From NCBI RefSeq assembly GCF_003334765.1, contig NZ_QOWT01000023.1: a stretch of 64,000 bases of DNA; one strand, written 5' to 3'. The translations under genes were made by a program, and so were the position numbers. Positions 10,440 to 52,279 of the stretch are shown one piece after another. This DNA comes from Escherichia coli (lineage in GTDB: Bacteria > Pseudomonadota > Gammaproteobacteria > Enterobacterales > Enterobacteriaceae). Every line of letters starts with the position of its first letter. Within the stretch, counting starts at the first letter, position 1. The notes below the pieces were generated by a model. The model searched no databases. It was not told the DNA's origin and saw only the letters and a list, made by a program, of their open reading frames with translations.

Positions 10440-11552
10440 ATGACCGCCTTAAATAAAAAATGGCTATCGGGTCTGGTTGCGGGTGCTCTGATGGCCGTCT
10501 CTGTCGGCACGCTCGCGGCTGAACAAAAAACACTCCACATTTATAACTGGTCTGATTATATCGCCCCGGACACGGTGGCCAATTTTGAAAAAGAAACCGG
10601 TATTAAAGTCGTCTACGATGTTTTCGACTCTAACGAAGTACTGGAAGGCAAATTAATGGCCGGGAGTACCGGCTTTGATCTGGTGGTTCCATCTGCCAGC
10701 TTTCTGGAGCGCCAGTTGACTGCGGGAGTTTTCCAGCCGCTGGACAAAAGCAAATTGCCGGAGTGGAAGAATCTCGACCCGGAACTGCTGAAGCTGGTCG
10801 CCAAACACGATCCCGACAATAAATTTGCTATGCCCTATATGTGGGCGACGACCGGGATTGGCTATAACGTTGATAAAGTTAAAGCGGTGCTGGGCGAAAA
10901 CGCGCCCGTCGATAGCTGGGACTTGATCCTCAAACCTGAAAATCTGGAAAAACTGAAAAGCTGCGGTGTCTCTTTCCTGGATGCGCCAGAAGAAGTTTTT
11001 GCTACCGTGTTGAATTATCTCGGCAAAGATCCCAACAGCACTAAAGCGGATGATTACACCGGACCGGCAACAGATCTGCTGTTAAAGCTGCGCCCGAACA
11101 TTCGTTATTTCCATTCATCTCAATACATTAACGACCTGGCAAACGGCGATATTTGCGTCGCTATCGGCTGGGCAGGTGATGTCTGGCAGGCGTCAAACCG
11201 CGCGAAGGAAGCGAAGAATGGCGTGAATGTCTCGTTCTCGATTCCAAAAGAAGGGGCGATGGCGTTCTTTGATGTATTCGCCATGCCTGCGGATGCCAAA
11301 AACAAAGACGAAGCCTATCAGTTCCTGAATTACCTGCTGCGCCCGGATGTAGTAGCGCATATTTCCGACCATGTGTTCTATGCCAACGCCAATAAAGCAG
11401 CCACGCCGCTGGTGAGTGCGGAAGTCCGTGAGAACCCAGGTATTTATCCGCCTGCGGATGTTCGTGCGAAGCTGTTCACTCTGAAAGTGCAGGATCCGAA
11501 AATCGACCGTGTGCGCACCCGCGCGTGGACCAAAGTGAAGAGCGGAAAATAA
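10440..11552 (+). CDS. potF: putrescine ABC transporter periplasmic binding protein
   Basis: 370-aa product with signal peptide MTALNKKWLSGLVAGALMAVSVGTLAA; first gene of potFGHI. Start at the ATG at 10440. Confidence 0.95.
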   Translation: MTALNKKWLSGLVAGALMAVSVGTLAAEQKTLHIYNWSDYIAPDTVANFEKETGIKVVYDVFDSNEVLEGKLMAGSTGFDLVVPSASFLERQLTAGVFQPLDKSKLPEWKNLDPELLKLVAKHDPDNKFAMPYMWATTGIGYNVDKVKAVLGENAPVDSWDLILKPENLEKLKSCGVSFLDAPEEVFATVLNYLGKDPNSTKADDYTGPATDLLLKLRPNIRYFHSSQYINDLANGDICVAIGWAGDVWQASNRAKEAKNGVNVSFSIPKEGAMAFFDVFAMPADAKNKDEAYQFLNYLLRPDVVAHISDHVFYANANKAATPLVSAEVRENPGIYPPADVRAKLFTLKVQDPKIDRVRTRAWTKVKSGK

Positions 11553-42196: not shown

Positions 42197-42221
42197 TCTG
42201 ATTGTTAGGTAGGTTGGTCAA

Positions 42222-42256
42222 GTCCGTAATCTCGAAAGAGGTTACGGACTTTTTGT
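42222..42256 (+). terminator. rho-independent terminator of clpA
   Basis: Stem gtccgtaacc with gaaa-type loop, followed by tttttgtttat. Confidence 0.7.
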
Positions 42257-42408
42257 TTATGGGGTGGAGGAGGTTCAGACCCTTTTTTTAATGATGATGG
42301 TAAGTTGTTGATAATTAGTGCTGCGGGAAGGTAAGGATAAAAAAGGGTGCTGCAGGAGAATGGGATGGTTTTGCTTTATTAACAACGGGCTAAACGTGTA
42401 GTATTTGA

Positions 42409-42496
42409 GTTCACTGCCGTACAGGCAGCTTAGAAATTCACAGGTAACATACTCCACCCGCCCACCATGTTCACTGCCGTACAGACAGATAAAATG
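42409..42496 (+). CRISPR. type I-F CRISPR remnant: two repeats and one 32-bp spacer, no cas genes in window
   Basis: Repeat 1 gttcactgccgtacaggcagcttagaaa (42409-42436) is the 28-bp E. coli/Yersinia subtype I-F repeat. Spacer ttcacaggtaacatactccacccgcccaccat (42437-42468). Repeat 2 gttcactgccgtacagacagataaaatg (42469-42496) is degenerate at its 3' end. Confidence 0.85.
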
Positions 42497-42540
42497 CGAA
42501 AAAAAAGCTCGCACTTTCGTACGAGCTCTTCTTTAAATAT

Positions 42541-42554
42541 GGCGGTGAGGGGGA
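42541..42554 (-). other. tRNA-Ser (serW) 3'-end fragment = island attachment-site core copy; no intact tRNA here
   Basis: tggcggtgaggggg is the reverse complement of the last 14 nt (incl. CCA) of E. coli tRNA-Ser(GGA). It sits exactly where the serW 3' end is expected, about 344 bp after clpA. The tRNA body is replaced by island DNA. Confidence 0.5.
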
Positions 42555-42600
42555 CCGCCTGAAATAAATCTGACTTAATCCGGGGGTGTTATATAATTTC

Positions 42601-42649
42601 ATTATAAACAATGTATTATACTTTTTTCTGTCCGATATTATCTAATGTA
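42601..42649 (+). repeat. direct repeat copy A upstream of int
   Basis: attataaacaatgtattatacttttttctgtccgatattatctaatgt; near-identical core to copy B at 44084-44105. Confidence 0.6.
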
Positions 42650-42713
42650 TTCTTAGTGAAGCGAGAGACTAATGGCATACTGGATGGCATACTAGAGTAA
42701 CAGGAATTAGCGT

Positions 42714-43931
42714 ATGGCAGTTTTGACGGATACTAAAGCAAGGCATATCAAACCTGATGACAAACCATTGCCCCATGGGGGAATTACAGGACTGACTCTT
42801 CATCCTTCTTCAGTAAAAGGGCGGGGTAAATGGGTTTTTCGTTATGTAAGTCCGGTGACACAAAAAAGGCGTAATGCTGGATTGGGAACTTATCCTGAGG
42901 TCAGTATTGCTGAAGCTGCACGTGCTGCCCGGATAATGCGAGAGCAACTTGCTGCAGGTGATGACCCACTGGAGATTAAAAAGGCTGAAGCTGAAAAAGT
43001 TGTTATCCCAACATTTGCCGATGCAGCCAGGCGTGTACATGCTGAATTGTCACCGGGATGGGAAAATCCAAAGCATGTCAGGCAGTGGTTATCGACGCTT
43101 GAAAATTACGCGTTTCCTCAACTGGGAGCAAAAACGCTGGATTCGATTACGGCTGCGGACGTGGCAGAAACACTGCGTCCAGTCTGGTTAACCTTGTCAG
43201 AAACGGCAAGCCGGGTTAAACAGCGCATTCATGTTGTTATGCAGTGGGGATGGGCGCACGGTTTTTGTGTGGCAAACCCTGTTGATGTGGTTGGCCATTT
43301 GCTTCCTCAGCAGACAAGAGGACGTGATGAACACCAACCCGCAATGCCCTGGAGGCAGTTACCGCTTTTTGTGGCGACCAGTGTGTATACAGATGAACCT
43401 TATAATGTTACCCGGGCACTGTTATTAATGGTGATACTTACAGCAACCCGCTCGGGCGAAGCCAGGGGAATGCGCTGGGCTGAAATTGATTTTCATAAGC
43501 GGATATGGACTATACCCGCAGAAAGAATGAAAGCCAGGATACAGCATCGTGTTCCTTTATCCCGGCAGGCCATTCACATTCTGGAAAATATACGTGGTTT
43601 GCATGATGAACTAGTGTTTCCTTCTCCCAGAAAGCAGCAGATCCTTTCAGATATGGTGTTGACGAGTTTTCTGCGTAAAAAGAAAGCCATCAGTGATATA
43701 CCGGGGCGAGTTGCCACGGCACATGGTTTTCGCTCAACATTCAGGGACTGGTGTAGTGAACAGGGGTATTCGCGGGATCTGGCGGAAAGGGCGCTCGCTC
43801 ATACGCTGAAAAATAAGGTTGAGGCGGCATATCATCGTACTGATCTACTGGAGCAGCGTGTACCGATGATGCAGGCATGGGCGGATTATGTGATGTCTCA
43901 ACTTGCTAAAAACACTAAGGAATTCGCTTAG
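42714..43931 (+). CDS. P4-family tyrosine integrase
   Basis: 405-aa ORF with N-terminal MAVLTDTKARHIKPDDKPLPHGGITGLTLHP and C-terminal catalytic region (...AHGFRSTFRDW...RALAHTLKNKVEAAYHRTDLLEQRVPMMQAW) typical of tRNA-site phage integrases. Confidence 0.9.
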   Translation: MAVLTDTKARHIKPDDKPLPHGGITGLTLHPSSVKGRGKWVFRYVSPVTQKRRNAGLGTYPEVSIAEAARAARIMREQLAAGDDPLEIKKAEAEKVVIPTFADAARRVHAELSPGWENPKHVRQWLSTLENYAFPQLGAKTLDSITAADVAETLRPVWLTLSETASRVKQRIHVVMQWGWAHGFCVANPVDVVGHLLPQQTRGRDEHQPAMPWRQLPLFVATSVYTDEPYNVTRALLLMVILTATRSGEARGMRWAEIDFHKRIWTIPAERMKARIQHRVPLSRQAIHILENIRGLHDELVFPSPRKQQILSDMVLTSFLRKKKAISDIPGRVATAHGFRSTFRDWCSEQGYSRDLAERALAHTLKNKVEAAYHRTDLLEQRVPMMQAWADYVMSQLAKNTKEFA

Positions 43932-44045
43932 TTTCATGGACTGGCATACTCAGAGTAGCCAAATGGTTACTGCTTTCTTTTTTGAAAAATAAATGCAATG
44001 CCAGTTCGTAATGAAAACCTGGCATTGCACTCAGCTAACGATTAT

Positions 44046-44105
44046 TCATTATTATAACGAATAATACACTTGTGATAATTTATTTTTTGTCCGATAGTAT
44101 CTATA
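44046..44105 (+). repeat. direct repeat copy B downstream of int
   Basis: attattataacgaataatacacttgtgataatttattttttgtccgatagtatctatagt. Confidence 0.6.
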
Positions 44106-45630
44106 GTCTGTTTCGGTGATACTTCAGTATGTTTTGATGATCACAAATGAAAACTCCGGCATCGAATGCAGGAATATTTAGTTTTTTTGCCAGTTCGGAT
44201 GGTGTAATCGTGTTTCCTATATAAACAACCAGGTTATCATCAATCCTTATTTTCCTTTGTTCCGCCAGTATGTCAAGTGCTTCATCCAGAACACATTTTT
44301 TCCTGAGAGCATATGGGGCATATTGTAAAATATAACTTTTCTGGAATATGTAACCTGCTGTTGTGATAATTCTTTTCTGAAGCCATTTATCAAGTTTCTC
44401 AGCCGGGGATATTTCCCGAAGGGATTCAAGTTTATATATAAGATGCTTGAAATAAAATTCAATGAGATAAATGGCGCTATTAGTACTTTCCAGCGTTATT
44501 ACTGTCGAGTCTGGATCTTTCTCCAGTTCCAGAAGTGCTGCTATCCTGACAACCTGCTCTCTTTTTCTGACAATAATGTCTTCAAAAGTACCCATATGAG
44601 GATTCTGTCTGACAGTATCCATATTTTCTTTGTGAAAGCGCTCCAGTGCGCGGGATGCTGCATTTGATAATGTCATGCAGATGCGCTCTTTACTTTTTGC
44701 ACGTCTTTCTCTGGATGCTCTCAGAGAGTCTCTGATCTGACTGCCAAAACTTTTCTTACGAAAACAGCTTGCACATTGTTGCGTCACAACAGGAATGGCA
44801 GTATGCGGTTCTGTCGTCATTATTTTAATTGCTCCGGGTTCGCAAAATAGCAACCGGGCCAGAAAGCCATTGCCCCGGATCTGATCGCCAGTGAGAGTAA
44901 AAAACTTATTAAATATTACCGGTTGAGTCAGTATAAGTATAGTGAGACGGACATCATTCAGCCGGAATCCGGGTCTGGATGCTCGTTCAACGTTGACGGG
45001 TTGCCCACTCCATAATGTGTTGTACAGTGCCGATTTGCGTTCGAAACGCTTATCCAGAATAGTACCTCCTTCGTCAGACAGCAACAGAAGAGAGGGGGAC
45101 TGGCTGAGTTTCAAAGCTATCCCTTCTGGTGTCGCGTCATTAACGATGAGAACCTGTTGTGTGGGAGGTACGGGTTTATTTGCTATACACTTTTCAAGTG
45201 CTGCTCGTGCAGCAGCAGCATTTTCCGGGGATCTTTCCATTTCCTTTTTATATCTCCGCTCCAGTATTTTTTTATCTGTTGTCCACATCTCCATCATTCG
45301 GTCATAGTTTTTCTTATCGTCGATATATGCCTGATGTAGTTCTTCTTCTGTTTCATGAACAGGAGCGATTAATTTTGCACAGGCAGAGGTTTTTCCACTG
45401 CCTGATGCTGATGAAAGACACATAAATATCTGAAGGCTGGTACGCTGTCCTCCGGAAAGTTCAACTTCATGCGTATCCTGGACTGAGGCAGCCTTGACCG
45501 TCAGCATAACAGACAGCAGTATTTCACGGCTTATTCCCGTTTCTTCATGCATTTCATTAAGTAATGCCTGGCTCCTGTCAGGCAGTTTAGTTATGTCAAG
45601 TTCAGGGAGTGATAGTTTTGTCGTCATCAT
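44101..45630 (-). CDS. DUF3987-like (YfjI-like) protein with P-loop motif; putative island replication/primase-associated protein
   Basis: 509-aa ORF downstream of alpA on the same strand, motif SASGSGKTSACAKL. Start uncertain because of a 29-nt overlap with the alpA stop. Confidence 0.5.
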   Translation of the reverse strand: MMTTKLSLPELDITKLPDRSQALLNEMHEETGISREILLSVMLTVKAASVQDTHEVELSGGQRTSLQIFMCLSSASGSGKTSACAKLIAPVHETEEELHQAYIDDKKNYDRMMEMWTTDKKILERRYKKEMERSPENAAAARAALEKCIANKPVPPTQQVLIVNDATPEGIALKLSQSPSLLLLSDEGGTILDKRFERKSALYNTLWSGQPVNVERASRPGFRLNDVRLTILILTQPVIFNKFFTLTGDQIRGNGFLARLLFCEPGAIKIMTTEPHTAIPVVTQQCASCFRKKSFGSQIRDSLRASRERRAKSKERICMTLSNAASRALERFHKENMDTVRQNPHMGTFEDIIVRKREQVVRIAALLELEKDPDSTVITLESTNSAIYLIEFYFKHLIYKLESLREISPAEKLDKWLQKRIITTAGYIFQKSYILQYAPYALRKKCVLDEALDILAEQRKIRIDDNLVVYIGNTITPSELAKKLNIPAFDAGVFICDHQNILKYHRNRL

Positions 45631-45907
45631 TAAGTTCCTTTTGTTTGTTTTCAGGTTCAGACCAGGCTGGTGCCGTATGTAACGTCAGCCACTCATCGAT
45701 GGCAGATGCCCGCCAGCCAACGGATGCACTTCCAAGCCTTATCGGTTTGGGAAAGGTAGGGTCGTGGTATTTCGAGGCCGGATTTATTTTCACGTAAATC
45801 GTGGACCTGGATATACCCAGCAGCCGGGTAAGTTCAGCCATACGCAGGATGCGTGAAGGTGTGTCAAGCTGTCCGGTTTGATTTGACATATTGTTCTCCA
45901 TATGCAT
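45602..45907 (-). CDS. alpA: AlpA-family phage transcriptional regulator (HTH)
   Basis: ...ILRMAELTRLLGISRSTIYVKINPASKYHDPTFPKPIRLGSASVGWRASAIDEWL matches the AlpA/prophage CP4-57 regulator signature. True start may be the internal MSNQTGQ. Confidence 0.75.
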   Translation of the reverse strand: MHMENNMSNQTGQLDTPSRILRMAELTRLLGISRSTIYVKINPASKYHDPTFPKPIRLGSASVGWRASAIDEWLTLHTAPAWSEPENKQKELNDDDKTITP

Positions 45908-45962
45908 TGCACGTTGTGGTATCAGTTTGATAGCTTAAGGTCGGAATGTCCCCTGCGATAAA

Positions 45963-47825
45963 ATGCAAACCAACCGGAGAGCACAGCATATGCGCACATT
46001 TACAAATCTGTTGTATGATATTTGTACTGTTCTGGGGTTGTTCAGGGAAGGCGAGAACCCGGCACACAAGCGGAAGAGCACTAATTTCGAAATGCATCAA
46101 AAATTCTGGGATCAACGTTACAATGCGATCAGTCGTATTATTGATGCTGAAGGGGTGTATAGTCAGGAGCAACGGCGGATCATATATGCCCGGTATGAAC
46201 ATTTTTATTACATGATGAATTCTTATCCAGTTCATTCCACACTAAAATCTGAATTCCTTCGCAGCTATTGTCTGCGCACTTTTGGGGTTATTTTTCTTGT
46301 TGTAGATATTTATAATACATACAGACCAGAGAATGACTCTGCTTTTTATTATCATATTTATAATTTTTTACAGAAGTCGTATTGTCCTTGTCTTGATCAC
46401 TCTGATACAGAAAGCGATGAAGCTGCTGTTAAACGTTATCTTCGGGAATATCTGGCAGAACTGGGATTCAACAAGGAAGATTTTCATGAAAATGGAAAGT
46501 TGTATGCTCTGGGGAAATATACAGGAACTATTCGGAGGGATAACGGGAAAAGCAAGAGTCTGATGAAACAATATATCATGTCTATCAAAAATGAATATAA
46601 AAAGGATTATCGGGAGAAGAAACTGGATAAGGATGAACTGGAGAAATTACTCAGGAATATTGATAAATTCTATAATGCATTTTATTCATTAAGTGTCTTA
46701 CTTGATATACAACGAAAGACGAAGATACTTCAAAGCCTTGCATATTATCTCAGAGTGTTGGTGAGAAAGGGGCTCTGGACTCATGGTTTATATGGTTACG
46801 CTGAGCAATATCTTTATGACTTTACCAGCTTGGATACAACGCCTTATGCAAAAAAATTACTGGAAATGTTTTATAAGTTTGAAAACAGTGCAGAAGGGAC
46901 ATTGGCTCGTTATAATGTATCACTTGATGATAAATCTCAGGAATATATTGCCCGTCTGAAAGATCTTGTATTTAATATTAATGAGAAGAATGGTTGTGAT
47001 GACGCATATCTGAAAATGATTATAAGTCATTTTGGGCAGTTGCAGAATGAGGCTGTTCATGTGACCAGCTGCTACGGAACACTTGCGGTGTACATTTGTC
47101 TGATAAGGAAAAATAAAATTAATGATGTGCTGCATCATTATGATGACATGGAAAGAAAAGGATTGTTTGCTGAATTACCTTCAGGATATATCAGGGGGGC
47201 ATTATCGTTGCTTCGGACAGCACTGGAGGTTAAAGTAAATAGAAAAAATATAAAGTATGGCTCGTTGTTTTATTGGCTTGACCATGTAAAAGCTCATCAG
47301 GATGCATTTATTGAATCAATACCACTTATTGATCCTGTATATAAGGAGGGTGAAATACAGTATGATGCGAACAATTTTACCCTGATGCGTGTTATTAAGA
47401 TGTATAATTGTATGCTTGAAAAGATCAGTACGAAACCATATATAGCTCCCCCATATATTACAGGTTTGCTTGATGACGTAGAGAAGGTGCTGGATAAGAT
47501 AAATATTCTGATAGATAAAGAGTATGTTTATGATGGTAAGACACTGGCTGAAGTCATTATAGAGAACAAAGTATTATCCAGTCGCGAGCGTAAAGATACT
47601 ATGATAGGGCTTTTCACAGGCAGTAAGAAATATACTTTACTGCAATGTGTTGAGAAGCTTGGTGTATTAGTTCACTACGTGAAATCACCGGTCGATGAAA
47701 TTAAAAATGTGATGATGTTGTATGGCGATAAGGCCGAAAACAGGAACAGACGCAGAATGATATATGATGCGTTAACCATTATTTGTGAGGATGATAACAG
47801 GGCTAAACACCCTGATCTGTCGTGA
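45963..47825 (+). CDS. hypothetical protein, 620 aa (611 aa if start is the ATG at 45990); no recognisable domain
   Basis: Long uninterrupted AT-rich ORF divergent from alpA, rich in K/Y/N/I/E and predicted mainly helical. No Walker, nuclease, HTH or transmembrane motif recognised by eye. Confidence 0.6.
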   Translation: MQTNRRAQHMRTFTNLLYDICTVLGLFREGENPAHKRKSTNFEMHQKFWDQRYNAISRIIDAEGVYSQEQRRIIYARYEHFYYMMNSYPVHSTLKSEFLRSYCLRTFGVIFLVVDIYNTYRPENDSAFYYHIYNFLQKSYCPCLDHSDTESDEAAVKRYLREYLAELGFNKEDFHENGKLYALGKYTGTIRRDNGKSKSLMKQYIMSIKNEYKKDYREKKLDKDELEKLLRNIDKFYNAFYSLSVLLDIQRKTKILQSLAYYLRVLVRKGLWTHGLYGYAEQYLYDFTSLDTTPYAKKLLEMFYKFENSAEGTLARYNVSLDDKSQEYIARLKDLVFNINEKNGCDDAYLKMIISHFGQLQNEAVHVTSCYGTLAVYICLIRKNKINDVLHHYDDMERKGLFAELPSGYIRGALSLLRTALEVKVNRKNIKYGSLFYWLDHVKAHQDAFIESIPLIDPVYKEGEIQYDANNFTLMRVIKMYNCMLEKISTKPYIAPPYITGLLDDVEKVLDKINILIDKEYVYDGKTLAEVIIENKVLSSRERKDTMIGLFTGSKKYTLLQCVEKLGVLVHYVKSPVDEIKNVMMLYGDKAENRNRRRMIYDALTIICEDDNRAKHPDLS

Positions 47826-47861
47826 ACTCATCTGAGTGTGTTTTGAGTCAATAATCTTTAT

Positions 47862-47908
47862 ATCCCCCTGCTAATTTTGCTAACCATTAGCAAAATTAGC
47901 AGGGGGAT
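47862..47908. repeat. perfect 22-bp-arm inverted repeat (palindrome) 3' of the 620-aa ORF
   Basis: atccccctgctaattttgctaa-cca-ttagcaaaattagcagggggat; arms 47862-47883 and 47887-47908. Confidence 0.9.
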
Positions 47909-48176
47909 TATCTATGTCTGGCAAGAGAAAATTCTATAATAGTATGATTTCTTTGTTTATTTTGTTTTTCAATTAGAATGGTGTGTTTTTGTGATCTATG
48001 TCTAATTGTTTTGTATTCTTAGCGCCATCCCATTCATGGGCAGATGTACATACCGCCCCTATTAGATTGATGGGTTGCATGTTCATTGTATCTGTAAAAT
48101 ATGCCAGTTTTGACATTAATACATAATCTGTAATTCGGTGTAAGCTCTTGTCTGGTGAATTATGTTGCGTATTCCG

Positions 48177-48246
48177 CTCTATTCGATCACGGATTGGGCC
48201 AAATCATGATCGATTCGAATGCCAAACTGCGATCGATTCAGATGCC
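48177..48246 (+). repeat. GATC-containing direct repeats (iteron-like) in AT-rich non-coding region
   Basis: gatcgattcgaatgcc (48208-48223) and gatcgattcagatgcc (48231-48246), plus related attcgatcac at 48181-48190. Three Dam GATC sites fall within about 50 bp. Confidence 0.6.
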
Positions 48247-49200
48247 ATTTTGCATTATGTTAGTGGCTTATTCTTCTTGTTCTTTTTTACAGGTTATGTA
48301 AGTGTGATTATCCTGATTACTGGTCACTCATTATATACTGAGTCGACAAAACAAATGAGTATTAACTGAAGTTTTTATACAGTGATCATCTGTCTGGTTA
48401 GGTTAGTTAGTTCTGGGAGAATCACATTTATTTCATATACCATGAATAATTAAGGTTAATTAGTATTATTAGTTGGAGTTATGGTATTGTGTGTCTGTGC
48501 CGTATTGTTTGTATATTTGTTGTATAACTTATCTCTTTACGTGGTAATGTCACTCCTCTTTATGCTAAGTATTCTGTATGTGTGTAATGCATATATCTCC
48601 ATACACTACGCAGTGAAGCATATGGGGGAAGCTGTATGGTGAATTATGTGTGTAATGTTGTCCTGTACGTACTTAACACTGGTTACGTATCGGAACACTA
48701 TTAGAGCGTGTTATGACTCCGTTACAGTTTATAGGTATAGGTAAATATGATCTTTTCTGTATGGAACAATCTTCTTATGGTGTGTGGGTATGTTCTGTAT
48801 ACCATTATTCTTTTATGCTAATGATTAAATACCCGTGGTCTCTCTCGGCTTTACTTAATGGTTCGACAATATTAATAGCGATGTTGCCTGTAGCTAGCCG
48901 ATACTGAGTTTTGTGAATGTCAGATTACTTCCTGTAAAGAATTTAGTGGTGCTTCCTGAAACTCAATTCTATGAGGTGTGTTTTTCCATTGTAATTCGTA
49001 CTGGTTCTCAGTTTAAGAGAGTCTCACTGTATTCTGAAGTATTACCTCATCACAGTAATGCGGTAATACAAAACAGTTTTATCAGGTTGTCTGTGCTGCT
49101 GGTTTACTTCGTTTATTAATGCCGTGGTACGGCGTTTCTCTACTCTCAGTATTTACGTAAGTCTCTCTTCCTGTGAGTTTTATAAAGTAAGGACTATAAA

Positions 49201-49764
49201 ATGTATAATGCCAATCCCAATTACAAAATGGATTTCATGATTCTGAAAGACGTGAATGAACACATGGATGGTATGTTTCAACGTTTTTCTAAACTGTTAC
49301 CTTTCAGAATTGATTTTGCTTACAGGAAAGACACGCCCAGTTTCGGTCATTCCTGTAAGCACAGTATGTGTATGGAAATATACCGTTTACTTTGCGAAAC
49401 CCAGACGATGTTGGCGGGATATTACTGGGTAATGGAATATACACCAGACAAAGGGCTTCATATTCATTTTGTCGGCTACCTGGATGGGCAACGTCACAAG
49501 AACTCTTATCAGATATCCAGGCAACTGGGAGATATCTGGAGGCGGATCACGGAAGGGGAGGGTTACTTTCACCTTTGCCGGGCTAAAGACAAATACCCGG
49601 TGCGTATCGATCACGTGATGCACTATAGTGATAAGTCCGCGGTAGACAACTTACGTTACGCCCTTAGCTATCTGGCTAAACAGGATCAGAAAGAACACGG
49701 TATTATTCTGGGCCGTAGCAGGCTTCCCGAAAAAAGCAACCGGGGCCGACCACGACATAACTGA
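49201..49764 (+). CDS. YagK/YfjJ-family (inovirus Gp2-like) protein with HUH-type motif
   Basis: 187-aa ORF containing GLHIHFVGY (His-hydrophobic-His) and a downstream Tyr-containing region, reminiscent of rolling-circle/HUH initiators and CP4-57 YfjJ. Confidence 0.5.
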   Translation: MYNANPNYKMDFMILKDVNEHMDGMFQRFSKLLPFRIDFAYRKDTPSFGHSCKHSMCMEIYRLLCETQTMLAGYYWVMEYTPDKGLHIHFVGYLDGQRHKNSYQISRQLGDIWRRITEGEGYFHLCRAKDKYPVRIDHVMHYSDKSAVDNLRYALSYLAKQDQKEHGIILGRSRLPEKSNRGRPRHN

Positions 49765-49840
49765 ATTACAGTTGTATTAGGTATTAGAATTAAGTTTCTG
49801 TAAGTTGTTGGGAGGTGCTTGAGTTAATAGGCAGAAGAGG

Positions 49841-52279
49841 GTGGGGCGCTTTGTCATCAGTGTAGGGGACCCGAATTTCTGCCGTGGTGCCTCAGTGGAT
49901 CGGATACAGGTAACGAATATGGTTCATAAATCTGACAGTGATGAATTAGCTGCATTGAGGGCAGAAAATGCCCGTCTGGTCTCATTACTTGAAGCTCATG
50001 GGATTGAATGGCGACGTAAACCGCCGATCTCTGTGCAGCGCGTTTCTGTATTATCCACCAATGAGAAGGTTGCATTATTTCGTCGGTTGTTTCGCGGGCG
50101 TGATGATGTATGGGCACTTAGATGGGAAAGTAAAACCAGCGGCAAATCAGGGTACTCTCCTGCCTGCGCTAACGAATGGCAGGCGAGAATATGCGGTAAG
50201 CCCCGGATAAAATGTGGGGACTGCGCTCACCGTCAGTTGATTCCTGTATCTGATCTCGTCATCTACTACCATCTGGCAGGTACCCATACTGCCGGGATGT
50301 ATCCGTTGCTGGAAGATGATTCCTGTTATTTTCTGGCTGTTGATTTTGATGAAGCTGAATGGCAGAAGGATGCATCCGCATTCATGCGATCCTGTGATGA
50401 GCTGGGTGTACCCGCTGCGCTGGAAATATCCCGTTCACGTCAGGGAGCGCATGTCTGGATATTTTTTGCTTCACGAGTTTCGGCCCGCGAAGCTCGCCGT
50501 CTGGGGACTGCTATTATTAGTTATACGTGTAATCGAACTCGACAGCTGCGATTGGGTTCTTATGACCGATTATTTCCTAATCAGGATACGATGCCAAAAG
50601 GGGGATTTGGTAATCTCATAGCATTACCTCTGCAAAAAAGACCGCGTGAATCGGGGGGAAGTGTTTTTGTTGATATGAATTTCCAGCCTTATTCTGATCA
50701 ATGGGCTTTTCTTGCATCGGTGATCCCGATGAATGTGCAGAATATTGAACCGACGATATTACGGGCTACAGGAAGTATCCATCCTCTGGATGTGAACTTT
50801 ATCAACGAAGAAGACCTGGGTACGCCATGGGAAGGGAAAAAATCATCAGGAAACAGACTGAATATTTCTATTGCAGAACCGCTGAAAATCACGCTGGCAA
50901 ACCAGATCTATTTCGAAAAAGCGCAATTACCTCAGGTGCTGATTAACCGACTTATTCGGCTGGCAGCATTTCCGAACCCTGAGTTTTATAAGGCTCAGGC
51001 AATGCGTATGTCAGTCTGGAATAAGCCCCGTGTTATAGGTTGTGCGGAGAATTACCCGCAACACATTGCGTTGCCCCAGGGATGTCTGGACAGCGTATTA
51101 TCTTTCCTTAGGGACAACAATATTGCTGCAGAATTAATCGATAAACGATTTGTCGGGACGGAATGTAATGCCGTTTTTATGGGAAACCTCAGAGCGGAGC
51201 AGGAAGAGGCCGTTTCGGCATTACTCCGTTATGACACTGGTGTGCTTTGTGCGCCAACGGCTTTTGGTAAGACAGTTACCGCAGCGGCAGTGATTGCCAG
51301 ACGGAAAGTGAATACACTGATACTGGTACACCGGACTGAATTGCTGAAGCAGTGGCAGGAGCGTCTCGAGGTGTTTCTGCAGGTTGGTGACAATATTGGT
51401 ATTATCGGGGGAGGTAAACATAAACCCTGTGGCAATATTGATATTGCGGTGGTGCAGTCCATATCCAGACACGGAGAAGTTGAACCTCTGGTCAGGAATT
51501 ATGGGCAAATCATTGTGGATGAGTGCCATCATATTGGCGCGGTTTCATTTTCTGCGATTCTGAAGGAAACGAATGCCAGATATCTGCTTGGCCTGACGGC
51601 AACACCAATCCGACGGGATGGTCTGCATCCCATTATTTTTATGTACTGTGGTGCCATTCGCCATACAGCGGTCCGCCCGAAGGAAAGCCCACATAATCTG
51701 GAGGTACTGACCCGTTCCCGTTTTACATCTGGTCATTTACCATCGGATGCGAGAATCCAGGATATTTTCAGAGAAATTGCTCTGGATCATGACAGAACGG
51801 TGGCGATAGCTGAAGAAGCCATGAAAGCTTTCGGGCAGGGGCGAAAAGTTCTGGTACTGACTGAACGTACAGATCATCTGGATGAGATAGCATCAGTGAT
51901 GAATTCACTGAAATTGTCCCCCTTTATTCTCCATGGACGACTATCGAAAAAAAAGCGTGCGATGCTGATATCCGGGCTGAATGCTCTTCCTCCTGATTCT
52001 CCCCGTATTTTGTTGTCAACAGGCAGACTTATTGGTGAGGGATTTGACCACCCTCCGCTGGATACGCTGATTCTTGCCATGCCTGTGTCATGGAAAGGGA
52101 CATTACAGCAGTATGCGGGACGTCTACACAGAGAGCATACCGGTAAAAGCGATGTCAGGATCATTGATTTTGTGGATACCGCGTATCCAGTGCTGCTCAG
52201 AATGTGGGATAAACGCCAGCGGGGTTATAAGGCGATGGGGTACAGGATTGTGGCTGATGGTGAAGGGCTTTCATTTTAA
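49841..52279 (+). CDS. PrimPol-like (AEP) N-terminal domain fused to SF2 DExH helicase
   Basis: Helicase motifs: I APTAFGKT, II IVDECHH, III GLTATP, VI QYAGRLHR. N-terminal region has AEP-like motifs FLAVDFDE (DxD) and QGAHVWIFF (sxH) plus a Cys cluster CGKPRIKCGDCAH. Likely start is the ATG at 49919 (MVHKSD). Confidence 0.7.
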   Translation: MGRFVISVGDPNFCRGASVDRIQVTNMVHKSDSDELAALRAENARLVSLLEAHGIEWRRKPPISVQRVSVLSTNEKVALFRRLFRGRDDVWALRWESKTSGKSGYSPACANEWQARICGKPRIKCGDCAHRQLIPVSDLVIYYHLAGTHTAGMYPLLEDDSCYFLAVDFDEAEWQKDASAFMRSCDELGVPAALEISRSRQGAHVWIFFASRVSAREARRLGTAIISYTCNRTRQLRLGSYDRLFPNQDTMPKGGFGNLIALPLQKRPRESGGSVFVDMNFQPYSDQWAFLASVIPMNVQNIEPTILRATGSIHPLDVNFINEEDLGTPWEGKKSSGNRLNISIAEPLKITLANQIYFEKAQLPQVLINRLIRLAAFPNPEFYKAQAMRMSVWNKPRVIGCAENYPQHIALPQGCLDSVLSFLRDNNIAAELIDKRFVGTECNAVFMGNLRAEQEEAVSALLRYDTGVLCAPTAFGKTVTAAAVIARRKVNTLILVHRTELLKQWQERLEVFLQVGDNIGIIGGGKHKPCGNIDIAVVQSISRHGEVEPLVRNYGQIIVDECHHIGAVSFSAILKETNARYLLGLTATPIRRDGLHPIIFMYCGAIRHTAVRPKESPHNLEVLTRSRFTSGHLPSDARIQDIFREIALDHDRTVAIAEEAMKAFGQGRKVLVLTERTDHLDEIASVMNSLKLSPFILHGRLSKKKRAMLISGLNALPPDSPRILLSTGRLIGEGFDHPPLDTLILAMPVSWKGTLQQYAGRLHREHTGKSDVRIIDFVDTAYPVLLRMWDKRQRGYKAMGYRIVADGEGLSF

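Follow-up and report, generated by a model that had tools for sequence, protein, structure and literature searches.

A probable excision and replication operon of alpA and a DUF3987 gene in an SRL-PAI/SpLE1-type island of Escherichia coli

The locus described here raises the question of what an AlpA-type regulator and a DUF3987-like protein, encoded by two overlapping genes, contribute to the genomic island that carries them, and whether the overlap itself is of any functional relevance. Within a 64-kb stretch of Escherichia coli DNA (the window), a sequence-only reading had described the two genes on the minus strand with an overlap of 29 nt and proposed their translational coupling. Our analysis confirmed this arrangement, the assignment of both proteins to their families (Pfam PF05930 and PF13148), and the presence of a P-loop in the DUF3987 protein, and it led us to a different view of the overlap.

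The gene pair and its island

The DUF3987/YfjI-family gene (44101..45630, minus strand) encodes 509 amino acids that comprise an MCM-like AAA+ ATPase core (around residues 35-400) and a C-terminal winged-helix domain (around residues 405-470), and its reading frame, checked for disruption, is intact in the window. The alpA-family gene (45602..45889, minus strand) encodes a protein of 95 amino acids that is a probable Rox-type excision factor or activator. From the span of 44101 to 45907 originally given for the pair, the DUF3987 end stands and the alpA start probably does not. Counted from its first ATG, the AlpA reading frame would cover 45602-45907 on the minus strand (101 aa), but RefSeq places the start at 45889. 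A GGAGAA Shine-Dalgarno sequence in front of this ATG (GGAGAA-N6-ATG) is kept in seven loci from about four independent lineages, so that a frame beginning at 45907 probably includes 18 nt too many. Among complete E. coli genomes, 231 carry an annotation of the pair.

The interpretation of the two genes as an operon holds: They share one strand, each start codon has a Shine-Dalgarno sequence before it, no internal terminator was found within alpA-DUF3987, and the DUF3987 stop codon is followed by a strong intrinsic-terminator-like hairpin (43985..44033, minus strand; inverted repeat I1) with a 15-bp stem and then AUUUAUUUUU. The 121-nt stretch folded around it reaches -30.5 kcal/mol (z -3.96), a stability attained by 0 of 200 shuffles. 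The hairpin and its U-run sit between the DUF3987 gene and the convergent gene of a P4-family tyrosine integrase (42714..43931, plus strand; NF007246, PHROG 1), with int, alpA, and DUF3987 all located within 3.2 kb. In all 13 lineages with enough upstream sequence, a small sample that was partly chosen by similarity, alpA is the gene that immediately precedes DUF3987. The earlier claim that this pairing forms a conserved core of CP4-57-like and PICI-like elements can be upheld for the pairing, given these lineages and the defining gene set of PICMI satellites (PMC10803314), but not for a PICI-like nature of the island in the window.

Beside int lies the left-end direct repeat TGGCGGTGAGGGGG (42541..42554, plus strand), which comprises the last 14 bp of tRNA-Ser serW/serX and is identical to the one described in OI-43/48 and SRL PAI (PMC3064760). 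In comparison to SpLE1, the integrase (Sakai ECs_1299) and IEE (ECs_1305) are each 97% identical and the Gp2-like protein is 91% identical. The island in the window, inserted at clpA/serW at the 3' end of tRNA-Ser, is a pathogenicity island of the SRL-PAI/OI-43/48/SpLE1 family at serW/serX. No intact tRNA was found within the window, which places the right end of the island and the second copy of the repeat beyond base 64000. Complete site-specific excision has been demonstrated for OI-43/48 (PMC3064760), and orf1 and orf3 of SRL PAI are int and rox, respectively (PMC6980539). In the SRL-PAI/SpLE1 island family, the gene pair is already known as backbone. Finding it matters little in itself, given that the family is well studied, its excision shown, and the helicase nature of DUF3987 published. 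The island carries virulence genes. It takes up more than 21 kb of the window, exceeds 70 kb in NCTC9082, and is full of IS debris, so that autonomous replication may no longer matter to an element of this kind. We found no origin near the operon, and neither 43925-44110 nor the rest of 42200-49900 contains iterons; an ORF-poor stretch of 1.4 kb (47826-49200) was rejected as an origin because it shows little conservation among alleles and no convincing iterons, and an Rfam search returned only a CRISPR repeat and sub-threshold noise.

Proposed roles of the two proteins

With residues 18-74, the AlpA protein matches the full Phage_AlpA model of Pfam (PF05930, positions 1-51 of 51, E 2.3e-17), and it is 49% identical to E. 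coli K-12 AlpA across 57 residues (E 6e-18). It is a small winged-helix protein and probably the orthologue of SRL PAI Rox, an RDF (PMC3014918), and, by analogy, it probably promotes Int-mediated excision. Published AlpA homologues vary in being an RDF, an activator, or both: AlpA is required for excision of CP4So (PMC5148205) and both necessary and sufficient for excision of PICMI satellites (PMC10803314), and AlpA of EcCICFT073 activates its own operon, with pri-rep being needed for replication (PMC6092414).

The function of the DUF3987 partner had been called poorly defined, which is outdated. DUF3987 was predicted in 2016 as an SF6/MCM-like replicative helicase with a C-terminal wHTH domain (PMC4889955), and a PriCT-DUF3987 protein was shown in 2025 to be an ATP-dependent 5'-3' helicase that interacts with the primase-polymerase of its own element, the pair being proposed as its replication machinery (PMC11724360). 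Our own fold search agrees with this work in that it recovered an AAA+ fold of the SF6/MCM-like type followed by a winged helix at the C-terminus, with replicative MCMs as the top structural matches and matches to Cch and the SaPI5 replicase, and it was the only informative approach, as PDB sequence searches with the DUF3987 protein and with an 86-sequence profile gave no useful match. The Pfam match covers residues 35-398 (PF13148, model positions 4-359 of 364, E 2.2e-62) and includes a Walker A motif (SSASGSGKT, K80) and a Walker B motif (LLLLSDE, D186 and E187). Across 86 sequences, K80, Q236, G255, R259, and R362 are invariant and E187 is nearly so, and all of them are kept in the window protein. 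An HMM search for DUF3987 and primase C-terminal domains had been suggested as a check and was positive for the former only, since the 509 residues comprise just the ATPase and winged-helix domains, without a fused primase. A primase fused or encoded immediately upstream is frequent but not universal among DUF3987 proteins (PMC4889955). The gene immediately upstream of DUF3987 in the window is no primase gene but alpA. IEE, encoded 4.2 kb away, is the only AEP primase nearby and has a different known role. The dN/dS values of alpA (0.11) and DUF3987 (0.26) between the window and strain B771 indicate purifying selection on both genes. Some strains have an IS1 insertion in the DUF3987 gene, which is thus dispensable for the host. 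For islands of the SRL-PAI/SpLE1 type, we suggest annotating the "DUF3987 protein" as a helicase that is MCM-like and ends in a winged helix.

Based on the gene identities, the protein fold, the intact motifs, the gene order, the purifying selection, and the island family, we consider it likely that alpA-DUF3987 is the excision and replication operon of a P4-integrase island of the SRL-PAI/OI-43/48/SpLE1 type at serW. As suggested by its relatives, AlpA would stimulate excision by acting as recombination directionality factor together with the neighbouring integrase, directing recombination between the 14-bp repeats, and it may also switch on its own promoter. Encoded on the same transcript, the DUF3987 protein, as an MCM-like AAA+ hexameric helicase, would then load onto the circular DNA after excision and unwind it, again in analogy to its relatives, so that the island could be replicated or protected from loss after excision, with priming provided by the host or by another island gene.

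The same genes could instead be the core of a phage satellite (PICI or PICMI) in which a helper phage induces alpA, leading to excision, DUF3987-driven replication, and packaging into helper capsids. The combination of int, alpA, and DUF3987 is indeed the published defining set of PICMI satellites and precisely the mandatory set of the PICMI detection model, both genes are needed for the transfer of PICMI115 (PMC10803314), and alpA of EcCICFT073 is phage-induced (PMC6092414). We nevertheless regard a satellite as unlikely, because the size of the island exceeds the ca. 10 to 15 kb of a PICI, its cargo consists of virulence genes and IS elements, there is no iteron-flanked origin downstream of the helicase gene, and alpA-DUF3987 converges with int, unlike the PICI layout. 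None of six tested ORFs (42.7-52.3 kb) matches a packaging, capsid, or structural PHROG. In the regions covered, we found neither the iteron origin nor the packaging genes of a PICI, and the island has neither the small size of a PICI nor the minimal ca. 6-kb form beside fis of a PICMI.

The overlap of alpA and DUF3987

Translational coupling had been suggested from the 29-nt overlap (45602..45630, minus strand), in which the 3' end of alpA (…AAT GAT GAC GAC AAA ACT ATC ACT CCC TGA) runs over the 5' end of DUF3987 (ATG ATG ACG…). The overlap would shrink to 26 nt if DUF3987 were initiated at the second ATG of ATGATG. An AAGGA Shine-Dalgarno sequence is found 5 nt upstream of the first ATG. A later start cannot remove it because similarity to relatives begins at residues 10-13 or so, before the next methionine (M27), and the DUF3987 reading frame has no start codon upstream of 45630. 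Nor is the overlap a sequencing error, since the identical 29 nt are annotated also in NCTC9082, E2348/69, and O104:H4. Its origin becomes apparent from a sister allele in B771 (87% identical), where alpA ends 13 codons earlier with a TAA that aligns with a CAA in the window and leaves a gap of 15 nt to DUF3987, so that the overlap results from loss of the ancestral TAA stop codon in the window allele. Across lineages, the spacing of the two genes ranges from -29 to +642 nt and is typically +15 to +30 with a separate Shine-Dalgarno sequence (+128 in K-12), and among the other lineages only Aeromonas has an overlap (ATGA). Judging from these alleles, we regard the overlap as a lineage-specific accident and not as a conserved design feature, and it should not be taken as a regulatory device in annotation.

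Coupling is possible in this arrangement but neither required nor indicated, considering the spaced relatives, the Shine-Dalgarno sequence of DUF3987, and the junction RNA, for which folding predicted no stable structure that would mask this sequence (z +0.62). A functional overlap would mean either that DUF3987 translation is obligatorily coupled to alpA termination, which would set a fixed stoichiometry of the two proteins, or that a +1 slip creates an AlpA-helicase fusion. With CCC TGA A, alpA stops in a context that may be shift-prone, as a P-site tRNA-Pro could re-pair there on CCU in the +1 frame, which is that of DUF3987; furthermore, every allele checked from the class of at least 95% identity (77 complete genomes) has the overlap, and the AlpA and DUF3987 sequences fell in one 90% cluster. 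However, in the sister allele and ten other lineages a spacer separates the two genes and DUF3987 has its own Shine-Dalgarno sequence, the 13 residues that read-through adds to AlpA lack conservation, the DUF3987 Shine-Dalgarno sequence sits in unstructured RNA, and no stimulatory Shine-Dalgarno sequence lies upstream of the CCC-TGA site, all of which makes a functional overlap improbable.

The divergent neighbour and the intergenic motif

Divergent from alpA lies an uncharacterised gene of 611 codons (45990..47825, plus strand) whose product has no match in Pfam, NCBIfam, PHROGs, or PADLOC. That the DUF3987 ATPase serves with this neighbour in an anti-phage or conflict system and not in replication is highly doubtful, as neither protein has a PADLOC match, the structural matches of DUF3987 are headed by replicative MCMs, its partners are constant (AlpA, integrase, and Gp2-like initiator genes) and not variable defence cargo, and there is biochemical precedent for a helicase interacting with its element's own primase-polymerase (PMC11724360). 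We found no paper on the label "TOTE conflict system".

Homologues of the 611-aa protein (28-31% identity, E 1e-60 to 1e-80) are encoded in the same divergent position in Salmonella, locus L012, Enterobacterales CwR94, Kluyvera, Xenorhabdus, and SpLE1, and a weaker homologue occupies this position in Aeromonas. Two word-indexed searches for further homologues were dominated by near-identical E. coli entries without added diversity, a scan of a genome collection yielded only three loci, and YfjH of CP4-57 was compared as a remote homologue and rejected. With a dN/dS of 0.17 (window versus B771), the gene is a conserved third member of the cassette. The sequence between it and alpA contains a conserved motif (45943..45981, minus strand; CTCTCCGGTTGGTTT…GGGGACA) in which an alignment of seven loci shows GTTGGTTT without any variation and a mean column identity of 73%, compared to around 30% for the flanking proteins. 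Its exact 11-mer occurs once in the window, and the complement of the motif supplies the Shine-Dalgarno sequence of the 611-aa gene. The conservation is not protein-coding, because the window and L012 differ in the frame that the motif takes with respect to the 611-aa ORF, and an RNA hairpin was rejected, as its pairing is broken in the B771 allele; we consider the motif a candidate promoter or operator.

The conserved divergent partner gene of ca. 611 codons and the conserved intergenic motif are the only new points of our analysis. Comparison of islands indicates that this gene, the motif, and the operon make up one cassette, which islands exchange and which also occurs in inverted orientation. 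We put forward only tentatively, as a rather unlikely scenario, that the functional unit is a three-gene cassette, swapped and inverted as a block, with a conserved control region of ca. 40 bp between its divergent genes, in which the all-helical 611-aa protein acts as a so far unrecognised regulator or sensor timing alpA expression and island excision. If true, the protein would be a functional analogue of the SaPI master repressor Stl, which to our knowledge has no counterpart in Gram-negative islands. The gene and motif are testable candidates for the control of alpA and hence for the stability of virulence and resistance islands in EPEC, EAEC O104:H4, EHEC, and Shigella.

Comparison with known systems

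The closest relatives of the window island are SRL PAI of S. flexneri and OI-43/OI-48/SpLE1 of E. coli O157, which use the same serW/serX sites and the same TGGCGGTGAGGGGG repeat. As in the window, the AlpA-family RDF gene of SRL PAI is found two genes from int (PMC6980539), and S. flexneri sequences share 90% clusters with the DUF3987 and 611-aa proteins of the window. The cargo of SRL PAI and SpLE1 differs from that of the window island with its espI, and the 611-aa/alpA/DUF3987 cassette of SpLE1 Sakai is a distant allele (28%, 67%, and 26% identity, respectively) that is inverted relative to int and IEE and contains 642 nt and IS debris. CP4-57 of K-12 is likewise integrated at an RNA gene and shares the order of AlpA, DUF3987, and a Gp2/YfjJ-like gene (alpA-yfjI-yfjJ) beside a P4-type integrase. 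It differs in a 128-nt gap in place of the overlap, an operon directed away from int, an unrelated divergent neighbour (YfjH), and a YfjI that is only 24% identical to the window protein and carries the variant P-loop GERKS. The PICMI satellites of Vibrionaceae share the core of int, AlpA, and a DUF3987-type prim that is needed for the copy-number increase of the excised circle (PMC10803314), but these are ca. 6 kb elements beside fis that are packaged by virulent phages, whereas the window island is large, located at serW, and shows no evidence of packaging.

Compared to archaeal and eukaryotic MCM, Cch (DUF927), and SaPI5 replicases, with which it shares only 12-19% sequence identity, the DUF3987 protein of the window lacks an N-terminal OB-fold/zinc domain and has a long helical hairpin after the P-loop (around residues 80-150). 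It resembles AgaPH of a Seonamhaeicola integrative element in its DUF3987 core, Walker A and B motifs, and small C-terminal domain (PMC11724360). AgaPH has an N-terminal PriCT domain and is encoded directly downstream of PrimPol, whereas the window protein lacks both and has alpA upstream; encoded like its counterpart in an integrase-bearing element, AgaPH is an oligomeric ATP-dependent 5'-3' helicase (PMC11724360).

The alpA-DUF3987 operon and its overlap

The minus strand carries two ORFs, a 509-aa DUF3987 ORF at 44101-45630 and, upstream, a short AlpA-family ORF, which overlap by 29 nt (45602-45630) as the sequence-only reading had observed. An HMM search in Pfam places the first in PF13148 (DUF3987; E 2.2e-62, residues 35-398), bearing out the proposed family, and the second in PF05930 (Phage_AlpA; E 2.3e-17). 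The limits of the DUF3987 ORF are exact as given there: its first ATG follows an AAGGA Shine-Dalgarno sequence by 5 nt, and the start cannot be moved downstream because relatives are already similar from residues 10-13 onwards and the next methionine comes only at residue 27. The upper end of the AlpA ORF, placed at the first ATG (45602-45907, 101 aa), is probably 18 nt too high, since the RefSeq start (45602-45889, 95 aa) follows a GGAGAA box conserved in 7/7 aligned loci (ca. four independent lineages). Both genes are under purifying selection, with dN/dS values against strain B771, an E. coli carrying an 87%-identical sister allele, of 0.11 for AlpA and 0.26 for DUF3987 (integrase: 0.09). 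At its end the operon has a 15-bp hairpin and then a U-run (z -3.96), located between the convergent DUF3987 and integrase (int) genes.

The overlap had been taken to suggest translational coupling, which may occur but is not indicated by our comparison. Among 5426 complete E. coli genomes, the 2-kb segment occurs in 231, at ≥95% identity in 77 and at 80-90% in 154. In B771, which belongs to the latter class and likewise carries the segment at clpA/serW, the alpA stop codon TAA aligns with a CAA of the window and is separated from the DUF3987 ATG by 15 nt, so that the window alpA is 13 codons longer and runs into the DUF3987 gene. Across 13 lineages the spacing ranges from -29 (window), -4 (Aeromonas, ATGA), +15, +15, +22 and +23 over +25, +26, +26, +30 and +64 to +128 (K-12 CP4-57) and +642 (SpLE1 of O157 Sakai, where the gap contains IS debris), and the spacer carries a Shine-Dalgarno sequence in most of them. 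At the junction, RNA folding does not exceed that of shuffled sequence (z +0.62) and therefore does not hide the Shine-Dalgarno sequence of DUF3987. Close apposition of both genes in one operon is conserved, in line with the view of the pair as a conserved core, and the overlap is not. The annotations of NCTC9082, E2348/69 and O104:H4 show the same 29-nt overlap. More speculatively, a +1 slip of tRNA-Pro at the CCC-TGA that ends alpA could continue translation in the DUF3987 frame and yield a fusion protein; this CCC-TGA (45602-45607) is not conserved in other alleles. We regard the overlap as incidental. The sequence-only observation is confirmed and its interpretation is supported in part. 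Separately, AlpA (95 aa) and the DUF3987 protein (509 aa) are listed in one 90%-identity cluster despite having no common sequence, which may be an artefact of clustering or may stem from an assembly in which a fused gene call bridges the two.

A helicase-like protein and its possible role in island mobility

The function of DUF3987 proteins, described as poorly defined in the earlier reading, is already treated in the literature. The family was assigned to the SF6 helicases as a distant relative of MCM that carries a C-terminal wHTH (PMC4889955), and in element-borne primases it takes the place of established helicase domains (PMC5862659). One PriCT-DUF3987 protein forms oligomers and acts as an ATP-dependent 5'-3' helicase, and mutating Walker A or B abolishes this activity (PMC11724360). 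Our findings agree with this assignment. The closest PHROGs family is labelled DNA helicase (E 5.6e-39), and a search of 1.84 billion representative proteins retrieved 5270 relatives, most of them free-standing at 470-530 aa; a few have N-terminal extensions of ca. 300 aa. All residues invariant (K80, Q236, G255, R259 and R362) or nearly invariant (S76, G77, E187, N204, W207 and R216) in an 86-sequence alignment are intact in the window protein, and an AlphaFold2 model built from this alignment has a pLDDT of 91 and a pTM of 0.87. By position in the model rather than residue-level alignment, SGSGKT and SDE would correspond to MCM-like Walker A and B motifs, TQP to the sensor-1 ANP of MCM, R259 in LARL to the arginine finger in its SRFD, and R362 in a lid helix to sensor 2. 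Unlike MCM, the protein lacks the MCM N-terminal domain, and in the model the P-loop is followed by an extended helical hairpin (about residues 80-150). IS1 splits the gene in E. coli strains cM8a and EC2 and another genome record retains only 39% of the 2-kb segment, indicating that this helicase gene is dispensable for the host.

In relatives, AlpA acts in excision. It is required for excision of CP4So, which is driven by its overproduction (PMC5148205), and alpA is both necessary and sufficient for PICMI115 to excise, leaving satellite gene transcription unaltered, and the circular form accumulates only with a DUF3987-type "prim" (PMC10803314). AlpA of EcCICFT073 activates its own operon and not int, and its over-expression causes excision and runaway replication dependent on int and pri (PMC6092414). 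The SRL PAI has int as its orf1 and, as orf3, rox, which encodes a recombination directionality factor (PMC6980539, PMC3014918). Window AlpA is likely the Rox orthologue, judging by gene order and by S. flexneri members in the same 90% clusters. Rox reportedly promotes excision of the SRL PAI but does not activate transcription of int. Gene identities, fold, intact motifs, gene order and purifying selection come from our own analysis, and we infer the activities of both window proteins by analogy: one transcript would carry alpA and the helicase gene, AlpA would turn the P4-type integrase towards excision at 14-bp repeats, and the DUF3987 helicase would then work on the excised circle. This proposal has weak points: no replication origin was found, with no iterons in 42200-49900; no primase lies adjacent to the DUF3987 gene; the island is large and decayed; and IS1 interrupts the helicase gene in some strains. 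DUF3987 often has a Gp2/YfjJ-like gene as companion, as seen in K-12, Aeromonas, comparison loci L012, L017 and L020, SpLE1 and the window; its product weakly matches replication-initiator profiles (E 0.003) and might, speculatively, supply initiator function.

An exchangeable block with a divergent 611-aa gene

Divergent from alpA lies a plus-strand ORF of 611 aa (45990-47825) whose product is matched by no family in Pfam, NCBIfam, PHROGs or PADLOC; its low-confidence model (pLDDT 68) is all-helical, with generic helical-repeat matches only. Homologues sharing 28-31% identity (E 1e-60 to 1e-80) always keep the divergent position beside alpA-DUF3987, in Salmonella, L012, Enterobacterales CwR94, Kluyvera, Xenorhabdus (frameshifted) and SpLE1, and Aeromonas has a weaker homologue alignable over its full length. 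The gene is under purifying selection (dN/dS 0.17). A motif, CTCCGGTTGGTTT … GGGGACA (45943-45981), lies in the ca. 100 bp that separate this gene from alpA; the motif may be a promoter or operator, and part of it is the gene's ribosome-binding site. Identity between the flanking proteins is only ca. 30%, yet GTTGGTTT is invariant in 7/7 aligned loci, several of them closely related and together representing ca. four independent lineages.

The 611-aa/alpA/DUF3987 block behaves as a mosaic, exchangeable cassette, because it is a distant, inverted allele (window 44101-47825 versus 6162-11415 of the SpLE1 locus L024) between int, Gp2-like and IEE flanks ca. 95% identical in DNA, and because dS against B771 is ca. 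1.0 for alpA and the 611-aa gene versus ca. 0.17 for int and Gp2. Shortly behind the stop codon of the 611-aa gene lies a perfect 22-nt inverted repeat (47862-47908), within a 1.4-kb AT-rich stretch (47826-49200; 36% G+C) that has no long ORFs, is poorly conserved between alleles and yielded no convincing iterons.

The island and its relatives

Between the end of clpA (42196) in this E. coli window and the island, two type I-F CRISPR repeats (42409-42436 and 42469-42496; Rfam CRISPR-DR4, 50 bits) enclose one spacer in what looks like an orphan CRISPR remnant, at a clpA site where E. coli can carry a CRISPR array. The left end is marked by TGGCGGTGAGGGGG (42541-42554), only the last 14 bp of tRNA-Ser gene serW. 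A candidate arm-type or regulatory site is the tandem 12-nt repeat ATGGCATACTGG/ATGGCATACTAG (42672-42695), 19 nt ahead of the start codon of the integrase. Since ARAGORN detects no intact tRNA anywhere in the 64-kb window, the island runs beyond base 64000, and both the complete serW and the second, right-hand copy of the repeat must be located there. The same 14-mer is the direct repeat of O157:H7 O-islands 43 and 48 and of the Shigella SRL PAI, and complete site-specific excision between the repeats was demonstrated for OI-43/48 (PMC3064760). The integrase, the Gp2-like protein (49201-49764, plus strand) and, behind it, a PrimPol-SF2 helicase (49919-52279, plus strand; "TOTE conflict system" in RefSeq) are 97%, 91% and 97% identical to SpLE1 ECs_1299, ECs_1304 and ECs_1305, the last being the IS-excision enhancer IEE. 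This repeat and these near-identical proteins place the island in the SRL-PAI/OI-43/48/SpLE1 family; its cargo is different and consists of espI and IS debris. The 1363-aa ORF at 59517-63608 (plus strand) is virulence cargo amid IS remnants and encodes EspI, a serine protease autotransporter, by annotation of the identical NCTC9082 island. The identical module lies at serX in NCTC9082, E2348/69 and O104:H4. In NCTC9082 the island is more than 70 kb long, with iha, aerobactin genes and cah among its cargo.

Of the CP4-57-like and PICI-like elements proposed as kin, CP4-57 has alpA and DUF3987 in the same order. The island is not a PICI, because it is far larger, shows no packaging or capsid match to PHROGs among the tested ORFs, has no iteron origin that we could find and carries its operon convergent with int. 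With PICMI it shares the three-gene core of int, alpA and DUF3987 but neither size nor site. The alpA-DUF3987 pair is ordinary, already known island backbone, and the exchangeable 611-aa/alpA/DUF3987 block is the only part of the locus not already described.
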